Positions 23,099 to 51,186 of a stretch of DNA of 64,000 bases are shown here, one piece after another. The stretch lies in the IMG/VR virus record IMGVR_UViG_2778261571_000004. One strand, written 5' to 3'. Under the pieces are notes generated by a model, which did not search any database, had not been told where the DNA came from, and saw only the letters and a program-made list of their open reading frames with translations. A program made the translations under genes and the position numbers. Position 1 is the first letter of the stretch. The number at the start of each line of letters is the position of its first letter. This DNA comes from a virus. Taxonomy: Duplodnaviria; Heunggongvirae; Uroviricota; Caudoviricetes.

Positions 23099-23137
23099 AG
23101 ATCCCTCTAAAACACACAGAGCGCGTCCATGCGCTCT

Positions 23138-23153
23138 AAAACAACTTGTTTAC
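23138..23153. promoter_or_regulatory. Operator-like palindrome, motif family 2 (AAACAAnTTGTTT), upstream of terS
   Basis: aaaacaacttgtttac; same palindrome recurs upstream of at least eight accessory genes. Confidence 0.4.
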
Positions 23154-23207
23154 TGCATCTGCTAACCAACTTGTTTTCTGGGGTGTTTAATTAGGTCTGG
23201 CATGTCT

Positions 23208-25351: not shown

Positions 25352-26016
25352 GCAGCCATCTCCCCGGAAGAGATCTTCTCCGCATATGCCACAAATGCGT
25401 CTACCCCGCTTTCTCCCGTCATTTCTTCCATGTGGGCAAGCAAATCACCAACAACAATGGCAGAGCCAGCAGGGAGCGTTTTAAAGCCCAATACGTCGAC
25501 AACACGTACTTCTTCCGCTGCAACTTCACGACTGATCTCGGTGTGTTCATCCTTCTGTCGTTTAGTTTCTTCGCCAAGATCGATAACTAGCGAGTCGGTG
25601 TCCATTTCTTCTGTCATACTGCCAACGAGAACATTCAACTCACGCTCTTCAAAGCCGAAAACCTCGATATCGTCCAGAACAAGCGACTCAAGCTCTTTCT
25701 GTAGCTTAATTGCATCGTAATCAATGCTGGCAAGTCGGTTATCTTCAAGGCGCTTCGCACGAACCTCGTCATCACTGAGATCATCGCGAACAATAACCGG
25801 TACGCGCTCAAGTCCAGCAAAAATTGCAGCCTCACGGCGGCCGTGGCCAGTAATAATTACGTCGTTCTTATCGACCGTAATTGGCTGGTCAAATCCGCGC
25901 TTTTTAATGGCTGCGGCTAGATCTCGGATCTGCTGTTCATCATGCTTTTTGGCATTCATCTCATAGGGAATAAGATCTGCCGGGTCGCGATATACGATTT
26001 CAAACTTTTTGGTCAT
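25348..26016 (-). CDS. ParB/Srx-like nuclease-domain protein 2
   Basis: ParB N-terminal motif ITGHGRREAAIFAGLERVPV; start set at MTKKFEIVY giving TAATG overlap with upstream stop; ORF track 25348-26049. Confidence 0.6.
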   Translation of the reverse strand: MTKKFEIVYRDPADLIPYEMNAKKHDEQQIRDLAAAIKKRGFDQPITVDKNDVIITGHGRREAAIFAGLERVPVIVRDDLSDDEVRAKRLEDNRLASIDYDAIKLQKELESLVLDDIEVFGFEERELNVLVGSMTEEMDTDSLVIDLGEETKRQKDEHTEISREVAAEEVRVVDVLGFKTLPAGSAIVVGDLLAHMEEMTGESGVDAFVAYAEKISSGEMAA

Positions 26017-26714
26017 TACATACGCTCCTTGTAGTAGTCGACCAGCCACACCAGAGCCTCACCAGCGTTCTCCATTTCATTACCGGTGTTAATAGCCTGC
26101 TCTTTGATGATGTTTTTTATGGTTTCTGCAACACGATCTGACGCATCGAAAGTTACTTTGAAGCGCATGGTCTGATGTTCCGCACCCACACGTTCGGTTT
26201 TCTCTCGTTTGTCGGTATCGACAGGCTCATCACTACCACGAGACAACGCCTCCAGTGCTTCAAGGTCGATTGCCGCCTCTTTTGCTAAAACCATCGAGAT
26301 TTCGTCGTCATACGGGGCGATTTCAGACAGTTGATAGTCAAGTTCTGACTGAATTTCTTCAATGAAGCGTTGCAATGCGATTTGGTCGTCTTCACCGTAT
26401 CGCTCGTTGTCCACCAGTGACATCTGTTTAGCTACGACATCGCTAATTTTGCCCACAGAAAGCACCGGAACCGTTGAAATTCCTTGCTCAATAGCAGCAC
26501 GCCAGCGATGTTCGCCGCCGAGGATTTCAAAAAATCCATCTTCAAGTTCACGAGCCAAAATTGGCTTAAAAAAGCCCAATTTTTCGATAGAACCTTTCAG
26601 TTTTTCAAAATTCTGCGCACCAACCGAATTGGTGTTCCAGGTATTCGGGCGAAGGTTGGCAACATCAACCTGCAAAATCGTGATTTTTACATCCATTTTA
26701 TTGCTACAATCCAC
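26016..26714 (-). CDS. ParB/Srx-like nuclease-domain protein 1
   Basis: ParB N-terminal motif ILGGEHRWRAAIEQGISTVPV; acidic C-terminal half. Confidence 0.6.
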   Translation of the reverse strand: MDCSNKMDVKITILQVDVANLRPNTWNTNSVGAQNFEKLKGSIEKLGFFKPILARELEDGFFEILGGEHRWRAAIEQGISTVPVLSVGKISDVVAKQMSLVDNERYGEDDQIALQRFIEEIQSELDYQLSEIAPYDDEISMVLAKEAAIDLEALEALSRGSDEPVDTDKREKTERVGAEHQTMRFKVTFDASDRVAETIKNIIKEQAINTGNEMENAGEALVWLVDYYKERM

Positions 26715-31266: not shown

Positions 31267-31368
31267 GAAACTTATTCCATAATCAATTTTTGGTGGAATG
31301 TACGGTTAGTCTGTCTACGCATCATAGAGATGTATATAATGACCAAAAAAGACTTAAAAAGGTAGACT

Positions 31369-31890
31369 ATGGTTAAAGACATCACCTACGGCATACCGGC
31401 TGAAGTCTGGCCGCGAGACTACGAACATGCTGAAAACATACTTATGTTCTGGCGGAAGAACAACATTCCTGTAAGAGTCACGCTTGAAGACGGTCAGGTG
31501 TTTTGCATGTACGTTCAGGGGACAATGCCTTCCCGCAATAAGCTAGATTTATGCCCGCTTCCATATGATAAAGAAAATCGTATAAGACTCCCACTTGAGC
31601 GCATTAGCACAATTGAATCAGGTGTAATCGATGGCATTGCTCGCGAGTTCAAAGGTAGGCTAACAATACATCCAGACTATGTTGACAATCAGCCATCACG
31701 CCGTGACTTTTTTGCGATATGTCGCAAGGCTTATCAAAACGACCAATCTATAAGGGTCTACATGACAGACGGTCGTGAAATAGAAGGGGTGTCAAGAGGC
31801 GTTGATGCTTGCCAGGTCACTCTTAAGTTAGAAGACGGCAGAAAAATACTTGTTTTCTTCGATTGGGTTGAACGAATCCTTCCATTTTAA
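31369..31890 (+). CDS. Hypothetical protein with two beta-rich repeats (weak resemblance to Rof/Sm-like fold)
   Basis: Internal repeat VRVTLEDGQVFCMYVQG / QVTLKLEDGRKILVFFDW; pattern only. Confidence 0.25.
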   Translation: MVKDITYGIPAEVWPRDYEHAENILMFWRKNNIPVRVTLEDGQVFCMYVQGTMPSRNKLDLCPLPYDKENRIRLPLERISTIESGVIDGIAREFKGRLTIHPDYVDNQPSRRDFFAICRKAYQNDQSIRVYMTDGREIEGVSRGVDACQVTLKLEDGRKILVFFDWVERILPF

Positions 31891-31930: not shown

Positions 31931-32185
31931 TACATGCCATTCATTTAAAACTCTTTCAATGTCACTCTGTATAAATATATAAGGTTAAAAGCCCGAATTG
32001 ATTATTTATTTAGGGAACACCTTCGACGATCTCGCTTTTATTTCTAGGACTTTCATCCCTGCAGAAAATTTAAAAAAAACACTTGCAATCTTTTTTCACG
32101 TATTGATAATTGAACTCGTCGAAAGCGAGCTGGCTAACGACAGTAAAAAATAAATTCATTTTAATTTTTCGTAAGGATGTCCATC

Positions 32186-32836
32186 ATGGCTAACATTATC
32201 ATTTCTAAAAAATCCATCATTGAAGCTGCTGCCATTGTATCCGACGAGCTGCGCGAAAAAGCAGATCTGGCAACTCAAACATATAACGAACATTATAAAA
32301 ATGGTACGCACACCAAAGCAGACAAAGCAAATATGCAAGCTGCGACCACTAAACTTGCTTACTTCATCAACAACGTCGTAAACGCAGTAGAAGACGAAAA
32401 ATTATGCTCTGTTTTCTACTATGCGATTAAAGCAAGCAAACAAGCGCCAGAAGTATTTTTCCGTGATGCAATGACTAATAGTTATTCTCTGGAAAAACTG
32501 GTCTATCTGGTCAAATCAATTAAAGCTGGTAAATGCGTTTATTCCATCGCTGATATGTCAGGATCTCGTGTATTCGCTTTAATCGATATGATTAACGACG
32601 AGATCGACACGTTCACCAATGGCGCTGTTTTCGATTTAATGAATGAAGCGAAAAAAGCGTGTGAAATTAAATTGGACGCTGGCTATACTCAAGCCAACCA
32701 GTTGATCAATCTTTGCGAACGTCTTGGACTTGTTGAAAAAGTCAAAGGAGCTGGGAGCGCGAAAGCTGGTACTCAGCAATATCGCTTTATTAAAAATGAT
32801 TTCTATAACTATCTGGCTGATGCTTTCAAAGCGTAA
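32186..32836 (+). CDS. Hypothetical protein
   Basis: ORF track 32177-32836; start adjusted to MANIIIS; AT-rich. Confidence 0.3.
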   Translation: MANIIISKKSIIEAAAIVSDELREKADLATQTYNEHYKNGTHTKADKANMQAATTKLAYFINNVVNAVEDEKLCSVFYYAIKASKQAPEVFFRDAMTNSYSLEKLVYLVKSIKAGKCVYSIADMSGSRVFALIDMINDEIDTFTNGAVFDLMNEAKKACEIKLDAGYTQANQLINLCERLGLVEKVKGAGSAKAGTQQYRFIKNDFYNYLADAFKA

Positions 32837-33604: not shown

Positions 33605-33694
33605 CCGTTTCCCGAAAAAATCCTGGCCGTTCCCCCGTCGGCTCATGAATACGTTCCTCGCCGCTTCTGAAAATTTCCCTGCGGCAGCTGGTGG
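33605..33694. repeat. Short cluster of about 22-bp direct repeats related to the array at 37572-37712, with adjacent Chi octamer
   Basis: CCGTTTCCCGAAAAAATCCTGG then CCGTTCCCCCGTCGG...; GCTGGTGG at 33687-33694. Confidence 0.45.
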
Positions 33695-33730
33695 CTATAG
33701 AGAAAGGGCCGTTTCTGGCCCTCTTCTCAG

Positions 33731-34213
33731 TTACACGCCATCAAGGATGTGGATGCGGTTGCTTGCGTATACATTCAGCATAAAGTTAGCGCAAAACAGT
33801 TTCCATGTATCAACGCCAGCGGTATACGTAATGTTTTTGCATTTAATCGCATTGTTGGCGATCCGCATCCCCTGCGATACTGCTTCATCGTCGGAAAATT
33901 TGAACGACGATTGAGTTTTAATCCAGACAGAAATCTGCGTAGCGAACTCAATCAGCTTGGACTGGCAGAATCGCCCGGAGCGCACCGGAAAGACGAACGT
34001 TCCGAATCCAGAATTTACCACATACGCTTTCTCAAATACCCGCGAGTAACGACGATTGCAAATGATGTCGCGTGCAATAATGCATTTTTCTTGTGCTGAC
34101 AGTTCTACCGTCTCATTGTCGCGCCATGCACCAAGTACTCGTTTTTCAATGTCAGAGAACGTTACAGCGATATTGCCATGTGCGGGTGCGTTTACAGTAG
34201 CGATAAAATTCAT
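33731..34213 (-). CDS. Hypothetical protein (operator-tagged moron)
   Basis: 160 aa; motif family 2 about 25 nt upstream of start. Confidence 0.35.
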   Translation of the reverse strand: MNFIATVNAPAHGNIAVTFSDIEKRVLGAWRDNETVELSAQEKCIIARDIICNRRYSRVFEKAYVVNSGFGTFVFPVRSGRFCQSKLIEFATQISVWIKTQSSFKFSDDEAVSQGMRIANNAIKCKNITYTAGVDTWKLFCANFMLNVYASNRIHILDGV

Positions 34214-34235
34214 GATTAATTCCTTATCGTAAATA

Positions 34236-34250
34236 ACAAATTGTTTTCTT
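34236..34250. promoter_or_regulatory. Operator-like palindrome, motif family 2
   Basis: aacaaattgttttct upstream of gene starting at 34213. Confidence 0.4.
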
Positions 34251-34418
34251 GTTGGTGTTAATTATCGTTGTACGAATAAGGCGTCAAAGTAGAAAGTTAC
34301 GGTAGCCGGACGGGAACAGGTGGGTTTGTCGGTTGCCTGGAGGTAAGAGGTTGGTGTTTTTAGCCTGCGGTAAACAGGATGGTCATTTAAGGCCACCAGC
34401 GTAAACTGGTGGCGTTTG

Positions 34419-35117
34419 TCATGCTGGAATCATATCTAATTGAAAAGATTCCATTATATATGTTGGTTCATCGATGTAGTCCTTCAGCCTATTGTCAAAT
34501 GACTCAAGCGGATTGTGTGGCGGATGATACCAGTCCGAGTATTCATTTAAAAAATGACCCATTATCAGTTCGATACCCACCTTTACTCCTGCAACTCCGA
34601 ACCATGCATTGTGCGTTAGTTGCTGGGCGTCTGTATCCAGTACGCGAATGCCATCAACAAGCTTTATTAGATTCCTGTGGTTTTCGTGTACTGTAACCTC
34701 TCCGCTGGTTAAGTCTATTTCAGCGAGAAAATATGGTCTTTTGCTTCCGTCGGACTTTTTGAAATGACAGTCATAAGCGACAGCAAACCACGCTTTACTA
34801 AAGTCTTTGTTGGCGTAAGTGGTACACATGCAACTAGGATAATCATCAATGTTAAACCAATCAGGAAGCGGATCATCTTTAGACGAGCCAGCAAAATCAT
34901 CAGCTAGTTTGTAGTTAATGTCTGGGTTGTACTTGCTGACAAAATCATCCACATCCTCTACATCCTCAACACCTTTCCAAACTTTACATTTCTCCGACCA
35001 AAAGAATCTCGCAATATCCGAAATGACTGGGAAACGTTTTTCAATTGAATTTATCAACTCTGCATGTTCTTTAAGAGATTTACGCTTGTTGATAAGCTTC
35101 TGAAGATGCGTACTCAT
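34419..35117 (-). CDS. Hypothetical protein
   Basis: 232 aa ORF, acidic N-terminal half, no recognised motif. Confidence 0.35.
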   Translation of the reverse strand: MSTHLQKLINKRKSLKEHAELINSIEKRFPVISDIARFFWSEKCKVWKGVEDVEDVDDFVSKYNPDINYKLADDFAGSSKDDPLPDWFNIDDYPSCMCTTYANKDFSKAWFAVAYDCHFKKSDGSKRPYFLAEIDLTSGEVTVHENHRNLIKLVDGIRVLDTDAQQLTHNAWFGVAGVKVGIELIMGHFLNEYSDWYHPPHNPLESFDNRLKDYIDEPTYIMESFQLDMIPA

Positions 35118-35400
35118 TTTTAATTCCTCGTTTGTTTTCGATGTGATAATTATCGCTGAATGAAATAGGCTAAAAAGAAGATTTATAAGGCTACTATCTG
35201 GAAGTAAGGCAAAGTGTTGTCATTTAAGGCCACCAATGCTGATGGCCTTAATAATTATCGCCCGATTACGCTAAGGATCTTTTCCTCAACTGATTTGTTG
35301 TTGCGACTAAACTGCCTTGCGTATCTGATGACAGAAGAGGCGTTTCGCTTTCTGACCATCTCGGCTCTTTCCTTCAGGCGTTTCTTGAAATCGCCCATAT

Positions 35401-35776
35401 TTACCACCAGGCGCAAAACGTCAGTCTGTTATTGTGAAAGTCGTGGTTCTTAATCAGGTCTTCCACAAGCTCTTTCAACTCCCCCACATCATGCCAGTAA
35501 CCTTCATCGTACTCCTGACTGCCGAAGAAAAAACCTTCCCGGGTAGGCAAGTACTCTTCGCAATTACTTTCGTTTATGTGCATCAAATGAGCCTTCAGAA
35601 AACAAATGTCATTCATCGTTAATTCTAAAAGCTCACAATTTTCGACTTCACCTACGTTGCGCTCCATCCACCCAACGAGCGCATTGAACTTACGGAAGTA
35701 AGCAACCCGCTTTCTGGATGCCTCATTATTCAGATCGTTTTTTGGCTGCGTCTCGATGTAGATATCAAGTCCCATG
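35401..35776 (-). CDS. Hypothetical protein
   Basis: Start set at MGLDIYIE with AAGGA RBS; ORF track 35401-35817 begins at an alternative start. Confidence 0.3.
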
Positions 35777-35892
35777 ATGGTTTCCTTATTAAGTTGCTTC
35801 AGTGAAATCATTTTCACAAATCAGATAAGGCAGAAAACAAATTGTTATCGGGCATAATAAAATGGCGCGGTTTGCGCGCCATTTAAAGAGGA

Positions 35893-36286
35893 TTAAGCGA
35901 ATACGCTTTCAGGGATTAAGGTGTCGGCAGGAATGCCAGAGGTAATGCGCAGACCGTACTGGCCAATCCAGGTGGTGCTGGTGTTCAGGCTGGAGGCGAA
36001 TACGGTGTTAACCATATTCATCATGGTTTCAAACACCTCTTCATCAACCTGGCGGAAGTAGTTCTCGATTTTCAGCAGCAGCGGGTCAGTTGCATCGAGA
36101 ATGGACTGGTATTGAGTCGCGTACTCGCCGTCGGAGTCATCACCTTTACGCACGATCGTACTGGCCTGTACTTCGGCGCCAGTTTCGGTGTTGTACGTAA
36201 CAACGGTGATTTTTGCCACATTCTTACCTTCGGCGGTTTCAGAGGCATAGTAAACATCAACTGTCAGTTTTTCGCGTTTAATGGTC
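35893..36286 (-). CDS. Hypothetical protein
   Basis: Start set at MTIKREK with GGAG RBS; ORF track 35893-36354; terminator hairpin downstream. Confidence 0.35.
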
Positions 36287-36414
36287 ATTTCACTCTCCGT
36301 AGTGTATTGGTTATTTTTATATTCTATGATCGTAAGTATGTACTTACAATACAAAAAAGCCCCGTAAGGATGGCGGGGCTGTCGTACGGTCGACTAATTA
36401 CCACTTGCACATTA

Positions 36415-36726
36415 TCAGGCTATTGCCATCACTGATGCTCTCTGAATCTCTTGCTGGGCCACGCGGTTAACTTCCATCAAAGCCAGTTCGAGCTGATGTT
36501 CCGGCCACATTCTTTGAAATGCCACCCAGCCTTTTCCACGCTGGCGACGAACATTCATTACATAACGAGTAAAGGTGTTTTTATCGAAAGACACCGCTGT
36601 TTCACGGAACAGACGAATAGAGGTTCCATTGGCAACGATGTCCAGCAAAGTTAATTGAGCAACCAGCGCAGGCTTCTCTTTTCTCTTCTGGTCTTTGTCC
36701 AGACCAAGAACCAATGATTTTTTCAT
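36415..36726 (-). CDS. Hypothetical small basic protein
   Basis: Start set at MKKSLVLG with GGAG RBS directly downstream of motif family 2; ORF track 36415-36774. Confidence 0.3.
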   Translation of the reverse strand: MKKSLVLGLDKDQKRKEKPALVAQLTLLDIVANGTSIRLFRETAVSFDKNTFTRYVMNVRRQRGKGWVAFQRMWPEHQLELALMEVNRVAQQEIQRASVMAIA

Positions 36727-36736
36727 CACAACTCCG

Positions 36737-36754
36737 TAAACAACTTGTTTTCTC
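36737..36754. promoter_or_regulatory. Operator-like palindrome, motif family 2
   Basis: taaacaacttgttttctc immediately upstream of RBS. Confidence 0.4.
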
Positions 36755-36879
36755 AATGGCGTAAATAATACCAATAAGAAAACGGCTACAAAGCATAATG
36801 ATCAGGTGCATGAGCGATATGCAGGTTCCTCCCTGCGGCTATAGAGAAATTAAGCCAGCAATGCTGGCTTTGGTTGGGA

Positions 36880-37230
36880 TTACGCGAATACCTCAAGAAA
36901 CTCCTGAACGTCCCAATGCTGGACGAGGTGAAGATAGACCTTAGAAATCACGTCATTTTCGCTATCGCATGTGAAGTAGTACTTCTGGCTGCGGTTGTAT
37001 GTGTCCACACAAAATTCGCTCATATCCATAAAGTCAGCATCTTCACCCATGTCGCAAATCATCAAAGCAGGTGCGTCATCACGAGTCATCAGCTCAAGCA
37101 CCCACCGCGAATTAATCAGAGTGGAAGACCAACCTTCTAACTCATAAAACTGATCAAACTCTTTTTGAGTTAATTTCTTAATTTGGTTGATGTCGATATT
37201 TGCAAACATAAAGCAATCCTTAAACAACAT
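36880..37230 (-). CDS. Hypothetical acidic protein
   Basis: 116 aa, D/E-rich; start codon lies inside a motif family 2 palindrome (gaaaacATGttgttt). Confidence 0.3.
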   Translation of the reverse strand: MLFKDCFMFANIDINQIKKLTQKEFDQFYELEGWSSTLINSRWVLELMTRDDAPALMICDMGEDADFMDMSEFCVDTYNRSQKYYFTCDSENDVISKVYLHLVQHWDVQEFLEVFA

Positions 37231-37571
37231 GTTTTCTTGATGGTGTTATTATCGCAATAACGCAAAGGCGAAAAAGGATTTTATTCCGGTGAATGTGGTT
37301 TTGGCAGTGAGTTTTCAGGTTCAGTACCGAGTACACTTTTTACATTATTCTGATTTAGTGGCCGAAGGTGGCTGGTGGGCAGAATAATCATCTCCCCGAA
37401 AACCTACTGAAATCGATTGTGACCCGTTGGCTGTCTGGCACAATTACGCTGTAACTGGGCATTCAGAGGGAGTCCAACGGTAAGTTAGTCCGCCTACGTG
37501 AGCGCCTCTCTTCTTCCCGCACATTACAGGTGGATAGCCGCAACTCTCCCTCTCGCTATACCGGTACGCCG

Positions 37572-37712
37572 CCGTTCCTGAACCGGCATCGAGCCTTTTC
37601 CCGAAATCCACACAGGCAACTCGACCGTTTCCCTGAAAACCTCCAGCCGTTCCCCGAAGGCAACCCAGCCGTTTCTGTAGCGGGATGCAGCCTTTTCCCT
37701 TATGGACCGGAG
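37572..37712. repeat. Array of six tandem 22-bp direct repeats (iteron-like)
   Basis: CCGTTCCTGAACCGGCATCGAG, CCTTTTCCCGAAATCCACACAG, CCGTTTCCCTGAAAACCTCCAG, CCGTTCCCCGAAGGCAACCCAG, CCGTTTCTGTAGCGGGATGCAG, CCTTTTCCCTTATGGACCGGAG; strict 22-bp register apart from one 9-nt gap. Confidence 0.65.
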
Positions 37713-37859
37713 GCTGACCGTAGGGGTGTTACGGGGGATAAAATCAGGAGTTGAATAAATACGAAAAAGGAGGCGACACCCCTCCTTCCCTCCCCACTTA
37801 TACATACCTGTCTTGTTCGCTATACATGTTGTGTTTTCTTCGTGTTTTATCTGTCTCAA

Positions 37860-38700
37860 CCTCTCTATAGGCGTTAATGCTCACTCCTTCCAGAACGTTC
37901 TATACGGCGACTAATTCTGTTGGTGAATTGGGTGTGTTGTTCTCTCTGTCGGTGTAAATGGTTTCGTTCGTTTTGCGGTGGTTCTTCTATGGGGTGTTCT
38001 CGTCGTTTTGGTGATTGTTCTTCTCCGTCTATGGAGTAATGGCAGGTGGGCGATTGCTTTCGTTATTGTGTTTGAGTTGTTTGTCTGGAGTGTGTGAAAG
38101 GCTTTTGTAGTTATTCGTGTATTGGGTAATGGCGTTTCCCGTGATTGTTATGTTTCGTGTCTTTTGGGGTTGAGAGAAACCTTGCGGTAACAGGCTTCGT
38201 TGGGGTTTCAGTGATTCTGGTGTTTCTTCGCTGTTTGGGGAATGGCGTGTCGTGGGTATCGCGCGTATGAATGTTTTCGGATTGCCTGTGAAAGTTAGGT
38301 TGGTTGTCCGGTAGCCTGGGAAGAAGAGGTGGGTCTTTTCGGTAGCCTGCCATAAAGAGGTTGGTTGTTTTGGGGAATGGCATATGTGTTATTTAGTTGT
38401 TTTGTTATGCCTGAAAATAAGTTGTTTATATGGTTGTGTAACGCAATGGGAGTGATTTTGAGCGTGTGTTTTTGTTGGTAGTGTGTTGGTCGTCTGTGGT
38501 GAAAATTGGACGCTGTGGCGCTGTCTGCTGCGTAGAATTACGGGTATAAGCAGTGATGTGTGAAAACGTCAATTTTTTAGACCAAATCGGGTGAAAGCGT
38601 TGATGTTTCGTTGATCTGTTATTCAGTTGTTTCCTTGATTGTATAAACAACTATAACTTATTGATATTTAAGGGTGTGATTGCAGGTATGGAAGGAGAGT
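37860..38700. other. Non-coding region with extreme GT strand skew and degenerate 100-130-bp repeats
   Basis: About 78 percent G+T on plus strand in sampled 60-mers; recurring words gtaatggc, gggaatggc, cggtagcctg; ORFs here are low-complexity. Confidence 0.5.
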
Positions 38701-38781
38701 AGTGGCGATCAACGGATTCTTATAGAAAAGAATCAAATTGTGACCGCCATTATCAACTGATTGATTTGTTTACTTGTGTAG

Positions 38782-39180
38782 TCAGTTCTCGAAATGAATA
38801 GGGTCAACGTAATGCCGCTCACCGCTTTTACCATTACACAGCACTGTAACTTTCGCCTTTTCACTCCAGGCTGAGTATAGAAAGTTCCCATCAGGTTGAA
38901 CATGGTAACGAGAGAAGTAAACATCGCCGACTGAGGCGTCGAACATGTTCCTATCTTTTTCACTTTGGGCAAGCGAGATGGATATCACCGAATTCCCATT
39001 TGGGGAAACGATTTTAAATTTATTCCCTATATCCATAACAATATTGTAACCAGGTAATTGCTTGTGTGTTTCCGGATCTATTTTCATGCATCGTGGGTAC
39101 ACGATAGTGTTAGGCTCTTCAACTGGCGTGGCATTAGCAGAAAGCACAAAAAATATTAGTGCCAATGGTGCATATTTCAT
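38782..39180 (-). CDS. Putative secreted protein
   Basis: 132 aa with N-terminal signal-peptide-like segment MKYAPLALIFFVLSANA. Confidence 0.4.
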   Translation of the reverse strand: MKYAPLALIFFVLSANATPVEEPNTIVYPRCMKIDPETHKQLPGYNIVMDIGNKFKIVSPNGNSVISISLAQSEKDRNMFDASVGDVYFSRYHVQPDGNFLYSAWSEKAKVTVLCNGKSGERHYVDPIHFEN

Positions 39181-39189
39181 TTATCCCTC

Positions 39190-39481
39190 ACAATTTCCAA
39201 TTTTCCAGACCATCGTCTATTTCAGCGTCAGGGTGGAATTGTACCGCATCAAATCCTACATCGAGCACCTTTCGAATGTTCTTGATGGTTTGCTATGTGA
39301 CACCGTAATCACGCAGCTTTTCTTCCCTCCCCTGACTCCCCCATACTCCGTTTCTGTACCCAATTGAGTCCGAGATCGTATGGTGCTCGAAACAGATATT
39401 TGGTAGACACTCAGAGTCATGCTGTGTAACGAGGGTAGGGCTACTAACTGTCGTCTTATACAATTTGGTGAGTTTCAGCAT
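39190..39481 (-). pseudogene. Possible frameshifted small gene
   Basis: 62-aa ORF 39293-39481 ends at a stop while a second frame continues plausibly (...IKNIRKVLDVGFDAVQFHPDAEIDDGLENWKL) to about 39190. Confidence 0.2.
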
Positions 39482-39723
39482 TTTACCACCCCGTTCGGAA
39501 ACAACTCATTCGCCGTAGTTGATATAACCTCCCAATTAACGCCGACATCAGCGTTATGGCATTGTCTGATTTTTTGCATCACCTGTACGCATTGTTCATC
39601 AGTGAGATCTGTCCTTACTTCAGCAATATCTTCTTTGTGCCACATAACCATGAGTAAGGGTTCGTCTTCTGGATAGTTTTTCAGTTTCTCGATGATTTCT
39701 TTTGCTGTTCCAAACATCTTCAT
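39475..39723 (-). CDS. Hypothetical small acidic protein
   Basis: 82 aa; AGGAG RBS and motif family 2 palindrome directly upstream. Confidence 0.35.
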   Translation of the reverse strand: MKMFGTAKEIIEKLKNYPEDEPLLMVMWHKEDIAEVRTDLTDEQCVQVMQKIRQCHNADVGVNWEVISTTANELFPNGVVKC

Positions 39724-39728
39724 CTCCT

Positions 39729-39746
39729 AAACAATTTGTTTTCTTA
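39729..39746. promoter_or_regulatory. Operator-like palindrome, motif family 2 (second copy at about 39774-39796)
   Basis: taaacaatttgttttctt and gaaaacaaattgtttta, within 100 nt of the metG terminator. Confidence 0.4.
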
Positions 39747-39830
39747 TATGGCTTATTATCTCAATCAACAAAAGGTAGAAAACAAATTGTTTTAGGGCTT
39801 GTGTAAATCAGGAGGGATTGTGTCTATATG

Positions 39831-39876: not shown

Positions 39877-41910
39877 TTACTTAACCTGGTGGCCAGGTTT
39901 AGCACCGACATCCGGGCTTAACAGGAAGATATCTTTCCCGCCAGGGCCAGCAGCCATCACCATGCCTTCGGAGATACCGAAGCGCATTTTACGCGGAGCC
40001 AGGTTAGCCACCATAATGGTGTGACGACCAATCAGTGCCTGTGGGTCTGGATAAGCAGAACGGATGCCTGAGAAGACATTGCGTTTTTCACCGCCGAGAT
40101 CCAGTGTCAGACGCAGCAGCTTGTCAGAACCTTCAACAAACTCTGCGTTTTCGATCAGCGCCACGCGCAGGTCAACTTTGGCGAAGTCGTCAAAGGTGAT
40201 GGTTTCCTGAATCGGGTCGTCAGCCAGTGGGCCAGTTACCGGTGCGGCTGTGGCTTTCACTTCTTCTTTGGATGCTTCCACCAGTGCTTCCACCTGTTTC
40301 ATATCGATACGGTTATACAGTGCCTTGAACGGATTCACTTTATGGCCCAGCAGCGGTTGCTGGATACCATCCCAGGTCAGTTCTGTATTCAGGAATGCTT
40401 CTGCACGTTCAGTCAGTTTCGGCAGTACCGGCTTCAGGTACGTCATCAGCACGCGGAACAGGTTAATGCCCATAGAGCAAATCGCCTGCAGATCGGCATC
40501 GCGTCCTTCCTGCTTCGCCACCACCCACGGAGCCTGTTCATCGACATAGCGGTTAGCCAGGTCAGCCAATGCCATGATTTCACGGATAGCTTTACCAAAT
40601 TCGCGGCTTTCCCATGCTTCGCCAATCACTTCAGCGGCATCAGTAAAGGTTTTGTACAGTTGCGGGTCAGCCAGTTCGTTTGCCAGCACGCCGTCAAAAC
40701 GCTTGTTGATAAAGCCTGCATTACGGGAGGCCAGGTTAACCACTTTGTTCACGATATCGGCATTCACGCGCTGAACGAAATCCTCCAGGTTGAGATCGAT
40801 ATCATCAATGCGCGAAGAGAGTTTCGCAGTGTAGTAGTAACGCAGGCTGTCAGCGTCAAAATGATTCAGCCAGGTGCTGGCTTTAATAAAGGTGCCGCGA
40901 GACTTGGACATCTTCGCGCCGTTCACCGTCACATAGCCATGAACAAACAGGTTGGTCGGCTTGCGGAAGTTGCTGCCTTCCAGCATGGCAGGCCAGAACA
41001 GGCTGTGGAAGTAAACGATATCTTTACCGATGAAGTGGTACAGCTCGGCGGTGGAGTCTTTCTTCCAGTATTCATCGAAGCTGGTGGTATCGCCGCGCTT
41101 GTCGCACAGATTCTTGAAGGAACCCATGTAGCCAATCGGCGCGTCCAGCCAGACGTAGAAATATTTGCCCGGCGCGTCCGGAATTTCAAAACCGAAGTAA
41201 GGCGCATCGCGGGAGATATCCCACTGTTGCAGGCCAGATTCAAACCACTCCTGCATTTTGTTTGCCACCTGCTCCTGCAACGCGCCGCTGCGGGTCCATG
41301 CCTGCAACATTTCGCTGAAAGAAGGCAGATCAAAGAAGAAGTGTTCGGAATCACGCATTACCGGGGTAGCGCCAGAAACCACCGATTTCGGCTCGATCAA
41401 TTCAGTCGGGCTATATGTTGCGCCGCAGACTTCACAGTTATCGCCGTATTGATCTGGCGCTTTACATTTCGGGCAGGTGCCTTTTACAAAACGATCCGGC
41501 AGGAACATGCCTTTTTCCGGGTCGTACAACTGAGAGATAGTGCGGTTTTTAATAAAACCGTTCTCTTTCAGGCGAGTATAGATAAGCTCAGACAACTGAC
41601 GGTTCTCTTCGCTGTGCGTCGAGTGATAGTTGTCATAGCTGATGTTAAAGCCTGCGAAATCAGTCTGGTGTTCCTGACTCATTTCGCCAATCATCTGTTC
41701 CGGTGTGATACCAAGCTGCTGTGCTTTCAGCATGATCGGCGTACCGTGGGCATCGTCGGCACAGATGAAATTAACCTCGTGGCCGCGCATTCGCTGGTAA
41801 CGAACCCAGACATCAGCCTGGATGTGCTCCAGCATATGGCCGAGGTGGATTGAGCCGTTAGCGTACGGCAGCGCGCACGTCACCAGAATTTTCTTCGCGA
41901 CTTGGGTCAT
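39877..41910 (-). CDS. metG: Methionine--tRNA ligase
   Basis: 677 aa from [31 protein letters not shown]; HIGH (HLGH) and KMSKS motifs, zinc knuckle CPKC...CEVC, C-terminal tRNA-binding domain; ORF track start at 42039 is an upstream in-frame extension. Confidence 0.95.
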
Positions 41911-42067
41911 AGTAGGCATTACTTCTTTGTAGTGAAAAGGGGCTTGATAGTAACAAAATGGCCTTATGTCTGCCATGTGATAACAGCATTTCTCATAAAT
42001 GATTAAATGTCGTAGCTGGAGTACACTACAAGGCGACAATTGCGCAAATTAAAATAAAGGAGACGGG

Positions 42068-43168
42068 ATGAGCGAGTCCAAATCGCCGGATGCCCTGAGA
42101 GCAATGGTAGCCGGTACGCTGGCTAATTTTCAGCACCCAACCCTGAAACACAACCTGACTACGCTTAAAGCGTTACACCATGTTGCGTTGATGGATGACA
42201 CACTGCATGTCGAACTAATCATGCCTTTCGTGTGGAATAAGCCTTTTGAAGACCTGAAAGAGCAATGTAGTGGTGATCTGCTCCGTATCACTGGCGCAAA
42301 GGCTATCGACTGGAAGCTGTCGTACAACATTGCCACGCTTAAGCGCGTCAAAAACCAACCAGGCATTAATGGCGTTAAGAACATTATCGCCGTCAGCTCA
42401 GGCAAGGGCGGTGTAGGCAAATCGTCCACAGCAGTAAACTTGGCACTGGCGTTGGCTGCTGAAGGTGCGAAAGTTGGTATTTTGGATGCCGATATCTACG
42501 GTCCATCAATTCCAACCATGCTGGGTGCGGAAAACCAACGTCCAACCTCACCGGACGGCACTCACATGGCACCTATCATGTCTCATGGCCTGGCAACCAA
42601 CTCAATTGGTTATCTGGTCACTGACGACAACGCGATGGTGTGGCGTGGCCCGATGGCGAGCAAGGCGTTGATGCAAATGTTGCAAGAAACCTTATGGCCG
42701 GATCTGGATTATCTGGTGCTCGACATGCCGCCAGGCACCGGTGACATTCAATTGACACTGGCGCAAAACATTCCTGTAACTGGTGCGGTTGTGGTAACTA
42801 CGCCGCAAGACATCGCGCTGATCGATGCGAAGAAAGGCATTGTGATGTTCGAAAAAGTCGAAGTGCCGGTACTAGGTATCGTCGAAAACATGAGTGTGCA
42901 TATTTGCAGTAACTGCGGTCATCACGAGCCAATTTTTGGCACCGGTGGCGCACAGAAACTGGCCGAGAAATACAACACGCAGTTGTTAGGCCAAATGCCA
43001 CTTCATATCTCTCTTCGTGAAGATCTGGATAACGGAACACCAACCGTTATTAGTCGTCCAGATAGCGAATTTACGGCTATTTATCGTGACCTCGCAGATC
43101 GCGTTGCTGCCCAAATGTATTGGCAAGGTGAAGTAATACCTGGCGAAATCGCATTCCGCGCAGTGTGA
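42068..43168 (+). CDS. apbC: Fe-S cluster carrier ATPase ApbC/Mrp
   Basis: Deviant Walker A GKGGVGKSS, CxxC motif (CSNCGHHE), divergent from metG with 157-bp spacer as in enterobacterial chromosomes. Confidence 0.95.
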   Translation: MSESKSPDALRAMVAGTLANFQHPTLKHNLTTLKALHHVALMDDTLHVELIMPFVWNKPFEDLKEQCSGDLLRITGAKAIDWKLSYNIATLKRVKNQPGINGVKNIIAVSSGKGGVGKSSTAVNLALALAAEGAKVGILDADIYGPSIPTMLGAENQRPTSPDGTHMAPIMSHGLATNSIGYLVTDDNAMVWRGPMASKALMQMLQETLWPDLDYLVLDMPPGTGDIQLTLAQNIPVTGAVVVTTPQDIALIDAKKGIVMFEKVEVPVLGIVENMSVHICSNCGHHEPIFGTGGAQKLAEKYNTQLLGQMPLHISLREDLDNGTPTVISRPDSEFTAIYRDLADRVAAQMYWQGEVIPGEIAFRAV

Positions 43169-43170
43169 TA

Positions 43171-43197
43171 AAAAGGCGGTGCAATGCACCGCCTAAT
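43171..43197. terminator. Bidirectional terminator between convergent apbC and umuD-like gene
   Basis: aaaaggcggtgcaatgcaccgcct hairpin. Confidence 0.55.
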
Positions 43198-43205
43198 CAG
43201 CTCTC

Positions 43206-43595
43206 CTACATCACGGGACAATCATCAAACTCGCCACTTCTTGCGTCGTTGATAATGTGAGTGATCACACCAAACACGGCATTGCTGCCCGTGCATCCAT
43301 CGTCATCCTTTGGCAATGCTTCCTTCTTACCGGTTCTTAAATCCTCCAGATGCTGACGTGGGTACTTCCGGTATCTTTTTACGCGATATTCCCCATCCAG
43401 AGCGCATACAAGCAGAGAACCATCAACCGGGGTAAGTGAGGAATCGACCACCAGCAATGCACCCTGTAATATTCCCTCACGATGATGACTATCAGCTGCC
43501 CTCATGAAGTAGGTCGCTGAAGGATGTCTAATTATCTGCTGATCAAGAGAAATACGGCTCTCAGCATAATCCGCCGCAGGAGAAGGGAAGCCCAT
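43206..43595 (-). CDS. humD: UmuD'-like S24 peptidase-fold protein (HumD-like, no UmuC partner in window)
   Basis: 129 aa beginning GFPSPAADY, the position where UmuD is cleaved to UmuD'; Ser (ADSH) and Lys (RVKR) equivalents retained; GAGG RBS. Confidence 0.75.
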   Translation of the reverse strand: MGFPSPAADYAESRISLDQQIIRHPSATYFMRAADSHHREGILQGALLVVDSSLTPVDGSLLVCALDGEYRVKRYRKYPRQHLEDLRTGKKEALPKDDDGCTGSNAVFGVITHIINDARSGEFDDCPVM

Positions 43596-45083: not shown

Positions 45084-46642
45084 ATGAAAATGACAAGTAT
45101 TCAACAACGTGCAGAGCTTCATCGTCAAATCTGGCAAATTGCTAACGATGTCAGGGGTTCGGTCGATGGATGGGATTTTAAGCAATACGTTCTGGGCGCA
45201 CTTTTCTACCGTTTTATCAGCGAAAATTTTTCCAGTTATATTGAAGCCGGTGATGACAGTATCTGTTATGCGAAACTGGATGACAGCGTAATTACTGATG
45301 ACATTAAAGACGATGCCATCAAAACTAAAGGCTACTTCATCTACCCCAGTCAGCTTTTCTGCAACGTAGCTGCGAAAGCAAATACTAATGACAGACTGAA
45401 TGCAGATTTAAACAGCATCTTCGTTGCTATCGAAAGTTCTGCTTACGGTTATCCTTCAGAAGCAGACATCAAAGGTTTGTTTGCTGATTTCGATACCACC
45501 AGTAACCGCCTGGGTAACACCGTTAAAGATAAAAATGCCCGCCTGGCTGCGGTTCTGAAAGGGGTTGAAGGGTTAAAACTTGGTGACTTCAACGAACATC
45601 AGATTGACCTGTTCGGTGATGCCTATGAGTTCCTGATTTCTAACTATGCGGCAAATGCCGGTAAGTCAGGCGGTGAGTTCTTTACACCGCAGCACGTCTC
45701 CAGGCTGATTGCACAACTGGCAATGCATGGCCAGACCCACGTTAACAAAATCTACGACCCGGCAGCGGGTTCCGGCTCACTGTTGTTGCAGGCGAAAAAA
45801 CAGTTTGATAACCACATCATCGAAGAAGGCTTTTTCGGTCAGGAAATCAACCATACGACCTATAACCTGGCGCGTATGAACATGTTTTTGCACAATATCA
45901 ACTACGACAAGTTTGATATCAAGCTGGGTAATACACTGACTGAGCCGCACTTCAGAGATGAAAAACCGTTTGACGCCATCGTATCTAACCCACCGTATTC
46001 GGTGAAATGGATTGGCAGCGATGACCCGACGCTGATTAACGATGAGCGTTTTGCCCCGGCTGGCGTTCTGGCCCCCAAATCCAAAGCTGACTTTGCGTTT
46101 GTATTACATGCACTGAACTATCTTTCTGCCAAAGGTCGTGCTGCGATTGTCTGCTTCCCGGGTATTTTTTACCGTGGCGGCGCGGAGCAGAAAATCCGTC
46201 AGTATCTGGTCGATAATAACTATGTCGAAACCGTGATTTCACTGGCACCGAACCTGTTCTTTGGCACCACCATTGCAGTAAACATTCTGGTGCTGTCTAA
46301 ACATAAAACGGATACCAACGTTCAGTTTATTGACGCCAGCGAACTGTTCAAAAAAGAGACTAACAACAATATCCTGACCGATGCCCATATCGAACAGATT
46401 ATGCAGGTATTTGCCAGCAAGGAAGATGTTGCTCATCTGGCGAAATCTGTCACGTTTGAGACCGTTGTCGCGAATGACTATAACCTGTCGGTAAGCAGCT
46501 ATGTGGAAGCGAAAGATACTCGCGAAATTATCGATATCGCTGAGTTGAATGCAGAACTGAAAACCACGGTCAGCAAAATCGACCAGTTGCGTAAAGATAT
46601 TGATGCGATTGTGGCTGAAATTGAAGGCTGCGAGGTGCAGAA

Positions 46643-46646
<4 letters not shown>
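45084..46646 (+). CDS. hsdM: Type I restriction-modification methyltransferase subunit (type IC, EcoR124-like)
   Basis: 520 aa; SAM-binding and NPPY (NPPYSVKW) N6-adenine methylase motifs; N-terminus matches remembered EcoR124I HsdM. Confidence 0.9.
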
Positions 46647-47890
<1,244 letters not shown>

Positions 47891-48011
47891 TTGACCATTG
47901 CTACCGACCGGGCCACCTTAACACCCGGTCTGTATATAGACTATTTTTTACGCGCCGGAAGTCACTCTTAACGCCCTTCCGGCCCTTGCCAGGCGGCACA
48001 AAGGATGCGCT

Positions 48012-51000
48012 ATGACTCATCAAACACACACCATTGCTGAATCCAATAACTTTATCGTCCTTGATAAGTACATCAAAGCTGAGCAAACAAGCGACAGCTA
48101 CCAGAGCGAATCGGACCTGGAACGTGAACTGATTCAGGACCTGCGGAATCAGGGTTATGAATTTATTTCCGTAAAATCACAGTCGGCAATGCTGTCCAAT
48201 GTTCGGGAACAGCTTCAGAGCCTCAATGGTGTGATGTTTAATGACAGCGAGTGGCGGCGCTTCACGGAGCAGTATCTGGACAATCCCAGCGATGGTATTC
48301 TGGATAAGACCCGTAAAATCCATATCGACTATATCTGCGACTTTATTTTTGACGACGGGCGTCTTGAGAACATCTATCTGATCGATAAAAAGAATCTCAT
48401 GCGCAACAAAGTGCAGATTATCCAGCAGTTTGAACAGGCAGGTTCTCATGCTAACCGTTATGACGTCACGATCCTGGTTAATGGCTTGCCTCTGGTGCAA
48501 ATCGAACTGAAAAAGCGCGGCGTGGCGATTCGTGAGGCTTTCAACCAGATACATCGTTACAGTAAAGAGAGTTTTAACAGCGAAAACTCCCTGTTTAAGT
48601 ATCTGCAACTGTTTGTCATTTCTAACGGCACCGATACCCGTTATTTTGCCAACACAACAAAGCGCGATAAAAACAGTTTTGATTTCACCATGAACTGGGC
48701 GAAATCAGACAACACGCTGATTAAAGACCTCAAAGACTTTACCGCTACCTTTTTCCAGAAACATACTCTGCTGAATGTTCTGGTGAACTACAGCGTGTTT
48801 GACAGTAGTCAGACGCTACTGGTGATGCGACCGTACCAGATTGCCGCCACCGAGCGCATTCTGTGGAAAATTAAGAGCTCCTTTACAGCGAAGAACTGGT
48901 CAAAACCGGAAAGCGGTGGGTATATCTGGCACACTACCGGTTCTGGTAAAACCCTTACCAGCTTTAAAGCCGCGCGTCTGGCAACAGAGCTGGACTTTAT
49001 TGATAAAGTCTTCTTTGTGGTCGACAGAAAAGACCTCGATTACCAGACCATGAAGGAATATCAGCGTTTTTCGCCAGACAGCGTCAACGGCTCGGAAAAT
49101 ACCGCAGGCCTTAAACGAAATCTGGATAAGGACGATAACAAAATTATCGTCACTACTATTCAGAAACTCAATAACCTGATGAAAGCAGAAAGCGACCTGC
49201 CTGTATATAATCAGCAAGTGGTGTTCATATTTGATGAATGCCACCGCAGCCAGTTTGGAGAAGCGCAGAAAAACCTGAAGAAGAAATTCAAACGCTATTA
49301 TCAGTTTGGTTTTACCGGCACCCCTATTTTCCCGGAAAACGCCTTAGGCTCAGAAACAACCGCCAGCGTATTTGGTCGTGAATTGCATTCGTATGTAATT
49401 ACCGATGCGATTCGTGACGAAAAAGTGCTCAAATTCAAGGTGGACTACAACGATGTGCGGCCACAGTTTAAGTCTTTAGAGACAGAAACTGACGAGAAAA
49501 AACTAAGTGCGGCTGAAAATCAGCAGGCGTTTCTTCATCCCATGCGTATTCAGGAAATCACGCAATATATTCTGAATAATTTCCGCCAGAAAACTCACCG
49601 TACCTTCCCTGGCTCAAAAGGTTTTAATGCTATGTTGGCAGTGAGCAGCGTGGATGCCGCGAAAGCCTATTATGCGACGTTTAAACGGTTACAAGAAGAA
49701 GCCGCTAATAAATCGGCTACCTATAAACCGCTGCGTATTGCGACAATCTTCTCCTTTGCCGCTAATGAAGAACAAAATGCCATTGGTGAAATTTCCGATG
49801 AAACTTTTGATACCAGCGCAATGGACAGCAGTGCTAAAGAGTTTCTGGACGCTGCAATTCGTGAATATAACAGCCATTTTAAAACTAACTTTAGCACCGA
49901 CAGTAACGGTTTTCAGAACTACTATCGTGATTTAGCCCAGCGGGTTAAAAATCAGGATATCGATCTGTTAATTGTCGTTGGGATGTTTTTAACCGGCTTC
50001 GACGCTCCAACATTGAACACGCTATTCGTCGATAAAAACTTGCGTTTTCACGGCCTGATGCAGGCATTTTCCCGCACCAACCGTATTTATGATGCAACTA
50101 AAACCTTCGGTAATATCGTCACTTTCCGGGATCTGGAACGCTCAACCATCGATGCCATAACGCTGTTTGGTGACAAAAACACCAAAAATGTAGTGTTAGA
50201 AAAGAGTTATGCAGAGTATATGGAAGGCTTTACTGATGCTGCTACAGGTGAAGCTAAACGCGGCTTTATGGCAGTAGTTTCAGAACTGGAACAACGGTTC
50301 CCTGACCCTGCCAGTATTGAAAGTGAAAAAGAGAAGAAAGACTTCGTTAAACTGTTTGGCGAATACCTGCGTGCCGAGAACATCCTGCAAAACTATGATG
50401 AATTTGCCACGCTGAAAGCCCTGCAACAAATCGATCTTAGCGATCCTGTTGCGGTAGAAAAATTCAAAGAAGAACATTATGTGGATGATGAAAAGTTCGC
50501 TGAATTGCAAACGATTCGTCTCCCTGCTGAACGCAAGATTCAGGATTATCGTTCTGCCTATAACGATATTCGTGACTGGCAGCGCCGCGAGAAAGAAGCT
50601 GATAAAAAAGAAAAATCAACCACTGACTGGGATGACGTGGTTTTTGAGGTCGATTTGCTGAAGTCTCAGGAAATAAACCTGGATTATATCCTTGGACTGA
50701 TTTTCGAACACAACAGACAAAATAAAGGCAAGGGCGAAATGATCGAAGAGGTCAAACGCTTAATTCGTTCAAGCCTGGGGAACCGGGCGAAAGAGGGCCT
50801 GGTGGTCGATTTTATTCAGCAAACGAACCTGGATGATTTACCAGACAAAGCCAGCATCATTGACGCGTTCTTTACCTTTGCTCAACACGAACAGCTACGT
50901 GAAGCAGAAGCGTTGATTAAAGAAGAAAATCTCAATGAAGAGGCGGCGAAACGCTATATTCGCACGTCTTTAAAACGCGAATACGCCACCGAAAATGGCA

Positions 51001-51128
51001 CAGAATTAAACGAGACATTACCAAAACTTAGTCCGTTAAACCCGCAATATAAAACGAAAAAACAGACGGTTTTCCAGAAAATCGTCACGTTTATTGAAAA
51101 GTTCAAAGGAGTAGGTGGGCAGATATAG
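48012..51128 (+). CDS. hsdR: Type I restriction endonuclease subunit
   Basis: 1038 aa; SF2 helicase motifs (TGSGKT, DECHRS) and N-terminal nuclease region; length equals EcoR124I HsdR. Confidence 0.9.
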
Positions 51129-51186
51129 TGTATTAATCTGAACCAGATCTGGCAGATATCTGTGCAAATTGCAGATAGCTGTCAGA

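Follow-up and report, generated by a model that had tools for sequence, protein, structure and literature searches.

The C1 regulon of phage P1 is built on operators scattered at many promoters, through which the repressor guards the DnaB analogue, the antirepressor and the route to late transcription. On the IncP plasmid RK2, the KorA/KorB regulon places maintenance and spread under the control of one or two repressors. Here we analyse an island of small genes at positions 33,731 to 39,723 of a 64,000-nucleotide stretch of viral DNA (IMG/VR record IMGVR_UViG_2778261571_000004; hereafter the window), which we assign to the SSU5/pHCM2 supergroup of phage-plasmids (PMC7969092). Gene regulation of SSU5-type phage-plasmids is apparently undescribed in the literature searched. 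A 15-bp palindrome, AAAACAAnTTGTTTT, stands before five of the eight genes first recognized in the island (g1 to g8, numbered by coordinate) and recurs well beyond it. We propose, tentatively and with a probability of roughly 0.45, that the island consists of repressor-gated, separately transcribed early accessory small genes and resembles the P1 C1 regulon.

The element would resemble P1 in being a phage that lives as a plasmid and in dispersing one operator sequence over many separate promoters. As in a dispersed operator of the C1 type, a single sequence was found at many promoters, where it overlaps the core promoter. However, the P1 operator is a 17-bp asymmetric sequence, whereas the site described here is a 15-bp palindrome that frequently occurs as a pair spaced exactly 51 bp apart. 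No homologue of C1 turned up in this analysis, which included no search aimed at one. With RK2 the element shares short palindromic operators at many promoters of one replicon, but the operator sequences differ, RK2 is conjugative, and the two ParB_N-domain proteins of the element are not known to bind the site.

Other precedents concern the genes rather than their control. Lambdoid morons, each a lone gene equipped with a promoter and terminator of its own, are lodged between conserved genes in some relatives only and are typically expressed from the repressed prophage. Parts of the island have this layout, but five island promoters carry the lytic/replication operator, and g1, g4 and g5 are core genes rather than insertions. 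Ocr (T7 gp0.3) and ArdA are elongated dimers whose carboxylates mimic the phosphates of bent B-DNA. Several island proteins are likewise small, acidic and encoded by a mobile element, but show no sequence similarity to them and have about half the charge density of Ocr. Finally, a neighbouring gene (31369-31890) matches the whole family model of FljA (PF03614), the phase-1 flagellin repressor, although the gene of the element is not linked to flagellin and is kept even in pMT1 of Yersinia pestis.

A palindromic site recurs at promoters of the island

Counted at two or fewer mismatches, the window contains 12 copies of AAAACAAnTTGTTTT and the complete genome of SSU5 contains 21, compared with 0.2 copies in block shuffles. 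An earlier note on this DNA, made from the sequence alone, had attributed to each island gene its own copy of a 'motif family 2'. This motif is most likely the palindrome, because AAAACAAnTTGTTTT is the repeat found upstream of island genes. Full copies do accompany g1, g3 (upstream-type only), g5, g6 and g8 (two copies), but g2 has a half-site and g4 and g7 have none. The sites and promoters of the island are as follows.

34233..34247, minus strand: putative operator of g1, AAAACAATTTGTTAT; follows -10 GATAAT (34261-34266) and -35 TTGACG (34282-34287)
35131-35139, minus strand: half-operator of g2, GAAAACAAA; half-site only
35834..35848, minus strand: putative operator of g3 and the adjoining g2b, ATAACAATTTGTTTT; upstream-type, no downstream copy
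36321..36349, minus strand: promoter of g4, sigma-70-like (TTGTAA, 17 nt, TAGAAT), without operator
36737..36751, minus strand: putative operator of g5, AAAACAAGTTGTTTA; follows extended -10 TGgTATTAT (36765-36773)
37221..37235, minus strand: putative operator of g6, AAAACATGTTGTTTA; 12 nt past extended -10 TGcGATAAT (37248-37256)
38414..38428, minus strand: orphan copy, TAAACAACTTATTTT; no gene behind it, SSU5 counterpart at 90739
39728..39742, minus strand: putative downstream operator of g8, AAAACAAATTGTTTA; between -10 and ribosome-binding site
39755..39760, minus strand: -10 GATAAT of g8, extended by a preceding TGn
39779..39793, minus strand: putative upstream operator of g8, AAAACAATTTGTTTT; perfect palindrome, centre near -38, overlapping the -35 and 51 bp from the downstream copy

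For comparison we used 77 related loci, obtained from one IMG/VR scan with g1 (67-99% identity), in which the presence of genes was scored by tblastn. Across the 252 unique sites in these loci the core AAACAAnTTGTTT is nearly invariant. Read in gene direction, the common downstream form is aAG-AAAACAAnTTGTTTA, and upstream copies have the form TAAACAAnTTGTTTTCT(A/G)CCTT. The downstream copy begins 11-12 nt past a GATAAT or TATTAT hexamer, mostly with TGn before it, adjoins the ribosome-binding site and ends 10-25 nt before the ATG. A spacing survey that covered the window, SSU5 and the 77 loci found neighbouring copies 51 bp apart in 49 unique contexts, 50 bp apart in 3 and 25 bp apart in 17, with two other spacings seen once each. 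If transcription is taken to start 7 nt downstream of the -10, the centres of the two copies fall near -38 and +13, on either side of the core promoter. Because a promoter's transcript does not include its upstream copy, we infer that the site is read as DNA, as the operator of a dimeric protein. The same site is kept in a Klebsiella element, which has 13 copies in 20.7 kb.

The site extends to other functions of the element. In SSU5 it precedes parA, the dnaB-like helicase gene, SSU5_049, nrdB, SSU5_094, the methyltransferase gene SSU5_095, the ant region and the first late-operon gene. In the window, copies outside the island lie at 23138 and 23163 (late operon), 53307 and 54036. Since replication, partition, nucleotide-metabolism, methylase and late promoters also carry it, we regard the site as a putative element-wide operator, marking about twenty promoters, rather than as a label of the island. 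The leader of the late (terminase) operon (23100-23177) has a layout of its own, with two copies 25 bp apart followed by a terminator-like hairpin (GAGCGC..GCGCTC and a T-run) and the ATG at 23098; positions 55-134 of SSU5 are laid out in the same way. This leader looks like a combination of repression with antitermination control.

The window as a phage-plasmid

The interval 33,500-39,900 matches 245 of 5,426 complete Escherichia coli genomes, in every case on a plasmid of ~95-115 kb and never on a chromosome. The island region is 94-98% identical to the phages Cyrano, CMS-2020a and PhiR41_1, and its flanks encode terminase, portal, helicase, ParB_N-domain proteins, metG and apbC. The gene order of the window is that of SSU5: SSU5_103 to SSU5_117, then SSU5_120, SSU5_121 and the helicase gene. 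Because of these plasmid-only matches, the phage matches, the flanking genes and the SSU5 gene order, the window is classed by sequence as a phage-plasmid of the SSU5/pHCM2 supergroup, from E. coli. At the nucleotide level the sole island match of SSU5 in a megablast comparison is a 51-bp stretch (~37230-37280) that comprises the g6 promoter and part of the operator.

The earlier note had also credited the element with its own type I restriction-modification system and a Dam-like methylase, and both are there. The region 45084-51663 holds the restriction-modification genes (hsdM, hsdS and an EcoR124-like hsdR) and, beside them, a 158-aa open reading frame (ORF; 51187-51663). This ORF corresponds to no more than the N-terminal 157 residues of SSU5_095, a DUF4942-type methyltransferase of 561 aa, and the insertion of the restriction-modification system seems to have cut the gene. 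Beside the island, metG, apbC and a gene for a UmuD-like S24 peptidase occupy 39877-43595. Only ~20 of the 77 loci have them, and these all belong to the E. coli clade. The block looks like a captured chromosomal metG-apbC fragment.

Gene content of the island

All eight small ORFs reported in the earlier note are present, on the minus strand. Four of their starts needed correction, for which we relied on the RefSeq annotation of a 98% identical plasmid and on the N-termini of homologues, and two further features had been overlooked. The revised inventory is given below with isoelectric points (pI).

33731-34213, minus strand: g1, 160 aa, pI 9.1, phrog_1641; hairpin at 33700-33728
34419-35117, minus strand: g2, 232 aa, pI 5.1; -10 GATAAT at 35149-35154, hairpin at 34392-34413
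35255-35398, minus strand: g2b, 47 aa, pI 11.3; new gene, start 2 nt past the g3 stop
35401-35775, minus strand: g3, corrected, 124 aa, pI 4.8; two-gene unit with g2b (35255..35775), hairpin at 35225-35250
35893-36288, minus strand: g4, corrected, 131 aa, pI 4.3; terminator at 35860-35884
36415-36726, minus strand: g5, corrected, 103 aa, pI 10.5; T-run terminator at 36353-36380
36880-37209, minus strand: g6, 109 aa, pI 4.19, net charge -13; hairpin at 36852-36870
37300..38780, minus strand: conserved non-coding element, ~1.5 kb, no credible ORF
38782-39180, minus strand: g7, 132 aa, pI 6.4; without operator, without terminator
39197-39481, minus strand: tenth feature, homologue of SSU5_105; in-frame TAG at 39293-39295, start overlapping the g8 stop
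39475-39717, minus strand: g8, corrected start, 80 aa, pI 4.7; phrog_10258, RefSeq label DUF1380

The start of g6 is placed at 37209 and not at 37230, because the operator covers 37221-37235, homologues begin with MFANI and RefSeq gives a gene of 330 nt. That of g8 is placed at 39717 because its homologues start there. The tenth feature aligns by tblastn with SSU5_105 (106 aa) at 55% identity over 104 of 106 residues, across the stop codon. The family is present in ~50 related loci, where relatives have TGG at the amber position; the interrupted copy is probably a pseudogene, with a sequencing error as the alternative. The N-terminus of g7, MKYAPLALIFFVLSANA, resembles a signal peptide when judged by eye, and its product looks secreted.

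Most genes had been said to possess their own terminators. GC-rich hairpins do follow g1, g2, the g3-g2b unit, g4, g5 and g6, but a canonical T-run is present only after g4 and g5, and a scan of the island found no terminator hairpin downstream of g7 or g8. The hairpins after g2 (34392-34413) and g2b (35225-35250) have a common 3' arm and tail, GGTGGCCTTAAATGAC, and in SSU5 similar AAGGCCAC..GTGGCCTT hairpins directly abut upstream operator copies. The shared hairpin and operator may form a terminator-operator cassette that has been reused.

Conserved core genes are interspersed with variable ones

The presence of each gene across the 77 loci divides the island into a conserved core and variable inserts. 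The core consists of g1, found in 77 of 77 loci (67-99% identity), g4 (~70 loci, 34-98% identity) and g5 (~70 loci, 54-100% identity). The variability of the island among related elements, which the earlier note had singled out for checking, is thus confined to g2, g3, g6, g7 and g8, which come and go: g3 occurs in ~37 loci, g6 in ~34 (E. coli clade only), g8 in ~18-20, g7 in 5 and g2 in 1, and the newly recognized g2b in ~28-30. Among the 72,556 plasmids of PLSDB, g2 was likewise found in 1, and a HMMER search of 1.84 billion representative proteins returned g2 itself and two weak matches only. By these searches g2 appears to be an ORFan cargo gene.

Pairwise comparison with diverged orthologues gave ratios of non-synonymous to synonymous substitution rates (dN/dS) of 0.10-0.39 for g1, 0.03-0.11 for g3, 0.09-0.39 for g4, 0.00-0.11 for g5, 0.00-0.15 for g6 and 0.08-0.13 for g8. 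For g2b the values ranged from 0.00 to 0.68 on very few differences, with 0.04 for the most divergent relative. The low ratios of these seven genes identify them as real genes under purifying selection, and at least six of the eight ORFs first recognized are under such selection. The value for g2 (0.84 against its sole known relative, on 22 nucleotide differences) is too weak to interpret, and g7 has no diverged relative and hence no informative dN/dS.

In the relatives, the same zone contains type I restriction-modification systems, Dam and DUF4942 methylases, Ivy, an invasin-like protein, SbcCD and TerB, as well as AAC(6')-Ib, dihydrofolate reductase and insertion sequence elements. No known anti-defence family was found in the corresponding zone of the related loci. 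In three of these loci (L044, L055 and L057) the genes for AAC(6')-Ib, dihydrofolate reductase and an IS3-family transposase lie at most 9 kb upstream of g1, which makes the zone a point of entry for resistance cargo as well.

The island proteins are acidic but lack recognizable homology

Searches of the island proteins against Pfam and NCBIfam gave no significant match, and PHROGs returned only families of unknown function. Ten proteins scanned with the PADLOC defence-protein models gave 0 matches, and sequence and profile searches of the PDB with all eight proteins were empty or insignificant. A PDB match of g6 to 'multicystatin' (E value 1e-4) was rejected, as it was the sum of three segments with individual E values of 19-300. 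The RefSeq label of g8, DUF1380 (PF07128), was not reproduced either: g8 had no Pfam match, and 6 of 14 family members had E values of 0.03 or worse. No functional literature on DUF1380 was found. Homologue searches with g4, g6 and g8 retrieved no more than 10-20 close clusters, and every one of these came from elements of this type. The earlier note had recognized no motif in the eight proteins and had proposed anti-defence roles, against which homology to housekeeping or structural proteins was to count; we found no confident housekeeping, structural or enzyme homology in any of the eight.

Structure prediction with AlphaFold2 gave an unusable model of g6 (mean predicted local distance difference test score, pLDDT, 49). 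For g4 the model was good (pLDDT 82, predicted template modelling score 0.78). It combines a beta meander of four strands with two helices and a beta hairpin, and a fold search with it found no meaningful neighbour.

The description of several proteins as markedly acidic is borne out relative to the element. Compared with ~72 ORFs of the window and 114 ORFs of SSU5, of which only 3-4% have a pI below 4.5, the products of g3, g4, g6 and g8 rank within the top decile for negative charge per residue. This amounts to four of the nine intact island proteins, more than expected by chance (binomial p ~0.008). The most acidic protein is g6, whereas g1 (pI 9.1) and g5 (pI 10.5) are basic. Per residue, g6 has a net charge of -0.12 and g8 one of -0.075, compared with approximately -0.24 for Ocr, so that the acidic island proteins have about half its charge density. 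Both values fall short of the roughly -0.2 per residue or more that marks the surface of DNA mimics of the Ocr/ArdA type. For a role against host defence the analysis produced neither positive evidence nor a refutation, and the DNA-mimic version of this reading is unlikely.

A conserved non-coding element

The non-coding element at 37,300-38,780, which contains the orphan operator copy, takes up about a quarter of the interval. Of 78 loci, 48-70 conserve it, and over 1.2 kb its identity to SSU5 is 66.7%. The gene-sense strand of 37,880-38,720 is CA-rich and G-poor (A 38%, C 31%, G 13%, T 18%), and the SSU5 counterpart has the same base bias. Iteron-like GGGAAA(A/C)GG(C/T) units lie at 37,602, 37,633 and 37,699, with another at 33613 downstream of g1. 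Two copies of a 36-nt repeat are found in the element (38305-38371) and a third outside it, upstream of g1 (34326-34361). Rfam gave no match to the element at the gathering threshold or at E <= 1. The idea that the CA-rich RNA is a decoy full of operator half-sites was rejected, as half-sites were not enriched.

The FljA-family neighbour and other candidate regulators

Outside the island lies a gene whose product belongs to the FljA family.

31369..31890, plus strand: FljA-family protein; Pfam Flag1_repress PF03614, weak Hfq-like C-terminal match

The match to PF03614 (E value 1e-80, 270 bits against a cut-off of 24) covers profile positions 1-170 of 170. The gene occurs on 831 PLSDB plasmids, including pHCM2 and Y. 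pestis pMT1, and in nearly all of the 77 loci, and is a core gene; no flagellin gene is found near it. Its alleles are 75%, 78% and 99% identical among elements whose g1 is 99% identical. FljA represses the translation of fliC (PMC2652032). The leader of E. coli fliC has no copy of AAAACAAnTTGTTTT; those of Salmonella and Citrobacter have CAAGTTG at -27, which scores -1.1 on a motif matrix that gives real sites 19-29 (p ~0.03).

The notion that the FljA-like allele tracks the operator sequence was rejected, since the operator does not change with the allele and is also retained in the Klebsiella element, where the FljA-like protein shows only 36% identity. SSU5_116, annotated as 'repressor-like', was discarded as the operator binder because it has no homologue in the window. 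The FljA-like protein is thus a possible but unsupported reader of the operator. Candidate repressors are this protein, a 219-aa protein encoded at 32177-32836 and g5, the support for each being limited to conservation.

Two observations concern this region. Immediately before the conserved 219-aa gene, at 32147-32161, is a degenerate operator-like sequence, AAAATAAATTCATTT (three mismatches), and the C-terminus of the encoded protein resembles a winged helix by eye only. An 18-nt inverted pair (26006-26023 and 31332-31349, 94% complementary, both with ATGACCAAAAA) has one arm across the beginning of a ParB_N gene, while its second arm covers the -10 region of the FljA-like gene; the pairing may be chance.

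Discussion

The earlier description of the island is borne out for the most part, with corrections for the element-wide reach of the site, its lack at three of the eight genes and the non-coding quarter of the interval. We favour the view, at the probability given above, that the island is a group of early accessory genes gated by a repressor. The complete module would comprise, in order, an upstream operator at about -38, a TGn-extended -10 with a weak -35, an operator at about +13, the ribosome-binding site and gene, and a GC-rich hairpin. A dimeric DNA-binding repressor encoded by the element would sit on one or both operator copies and block RNA polymerase. With about twenty promoters of the element under this site, the repressor would throttle the island genes in the plasmid state along with lytic and replication functions, and infection or induction would release them together. 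Their small, mostly acidic, cytoplasmic products may bind host or competitor proteins in host take-over or counter-defence. The two operator-free genes, g4 (with its near-consensus promoter) and g7, would more likely be expressed in the plasmid state. The build of the module, the spread of the operator over the element and its fixed spacing, purifying selection, the division into core and variable genes and the lack of known homologues are observed; in this scheme we infer from sequence the binding of a repressor to the site as DNA, the timing of expression and all protein functions.

Several points weigh against this interpretation. The site may instead serve an activator or be read in mRNA. 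The parA gene carries the site yet needs to be expressed in the plasmid state, so that repression would be at most partial or the regulator would be something other than the immunity repressor. The full site is missing at three of the eight genes (g2, g4 and g7). The core genes g1, g4 and g5 stand beside a conserved, iteron-like non-coding element, which a maintenance role would fit equally well. In addition, the island proteins show no detectable similarity to known take-over or anti-defence factors.

The two operator-free genes, g4 and g7, also provide the best fit to a different proposal, namely that the island genes are morons made in the plasmid state for lysogenic conversion, superinfection exclusion or abortive infection. 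A promoter-like -10 and a hairpin of their own for g1, g2, g3-g2b, g4, g5 and g6 (not g7), the patchy presence of g2, g3, g6, g7 and g8 (not g1, g4 and g5), the near-consensus promoter of g4, the N-terminus of g7 that resembles a signal peptide by eye, and the restriction-modification systems and Ivy of relatives in the same zone are all consistent with it. However, five of the eight promoters share the operator with lytic and replication genes, which points to co-repression; no PADLOC defence family is present; and g4 is core rather than variable. We consider this proposal doubtful, if possible. Similarly modest is the chance that g1, g4, g5 and the 1.5-kb non-coding element make up a replication, partition or copy-control module into which the variable genes were inserted as passengers. 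These components are syntenic across the supergroup, iteron-like units lie at 37,602-37,699 and downstream of g1, g1 and g5 are basic, and the neighbours encode a helicase and ParB_N-domain proteins. Yet g1 and g5 have no homology to replication or partition proteins, even with profiles, the repeats are few and irregularly spaced, and a RepA-type gene (SSU5_069) and parA are located elsewhere in the genome, according to the SSU5 annotation.

The FljA-family gene enters two further explanations. The motif might be read in mRNA, with the FljA-family protein repressing translation by binding it in 5' leaders, in the way that FljA acts on fliC mRNA (PMC2652032). A full-length gene of this family, core to the supergroup, is located 2 kb away, the downstream copy is always in the leader by the ribosome-binding site in a single orientation, and the Salmonella and Citrobacter fliC leaders contain CAAGTTG. 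Nevertheless, upstream copies fall outside the transcript at a fixed 51-bp distance, the fliC motif scores far below real sites and is absent from the E. coli leader, the motif is unchanged in the element whose FljA-like protein is 36% identical, and the sequence could form a 5-bp A-U stem at best, which renders a reading in mRNA quite improbable. The more far-reaching idea that the FljA-family neighbour is the master regulator of AAAACAAnTTGTTTT throughout the supergroup, that Salmonella FljA, the repressor of flagellar phase variation, descends from a phage-plasmid regulator of early genes, and that the island is early cargo including new counter-defence proteins, strikes us as rather unlikely as a whole. 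That the acidic proteins g6 and g8 inhibit type I restriction enzymes by mimicking DNA, like Ocr and ArdA, is very improbable. Their pI values (4.2 and 4.7) lie in the top decile, the proteins are small, variable among relatives and encoded behind the operator, and g8 carries the RefSeq label DUF1380, a name also found in the leading regions of conjugative plasmids. On the other side, no anti-restriction family was matched in Pfam, NCBIfam or PHROGs, charge densities of -0.12 and -0.075 compare with about -0.24 for Ocr, the g6 model is unusable and its 'multicystatin' match insignificant, and g8 falls below the Pfam threshold for DUF1380.

In other respects the island of repressor-gated genes that we favour is ordinary for a phage, consisting of small genes of unknown function. 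The putative operator would also guide which of the small ORFan proteins merit testing first. Besides pHCM2 of Salmonella Typhi and pMT1 of Y. pestis, the SSU5-type phage-plasmids include many elements of E. coli and Klebsiella that carry resistance. For this group, a 15-bp putative operator found at about twenty promoters, with its two sites in a fixed arrangement, offers a handle on the switch between plasmid and phage life and on which genes may switch along with it.

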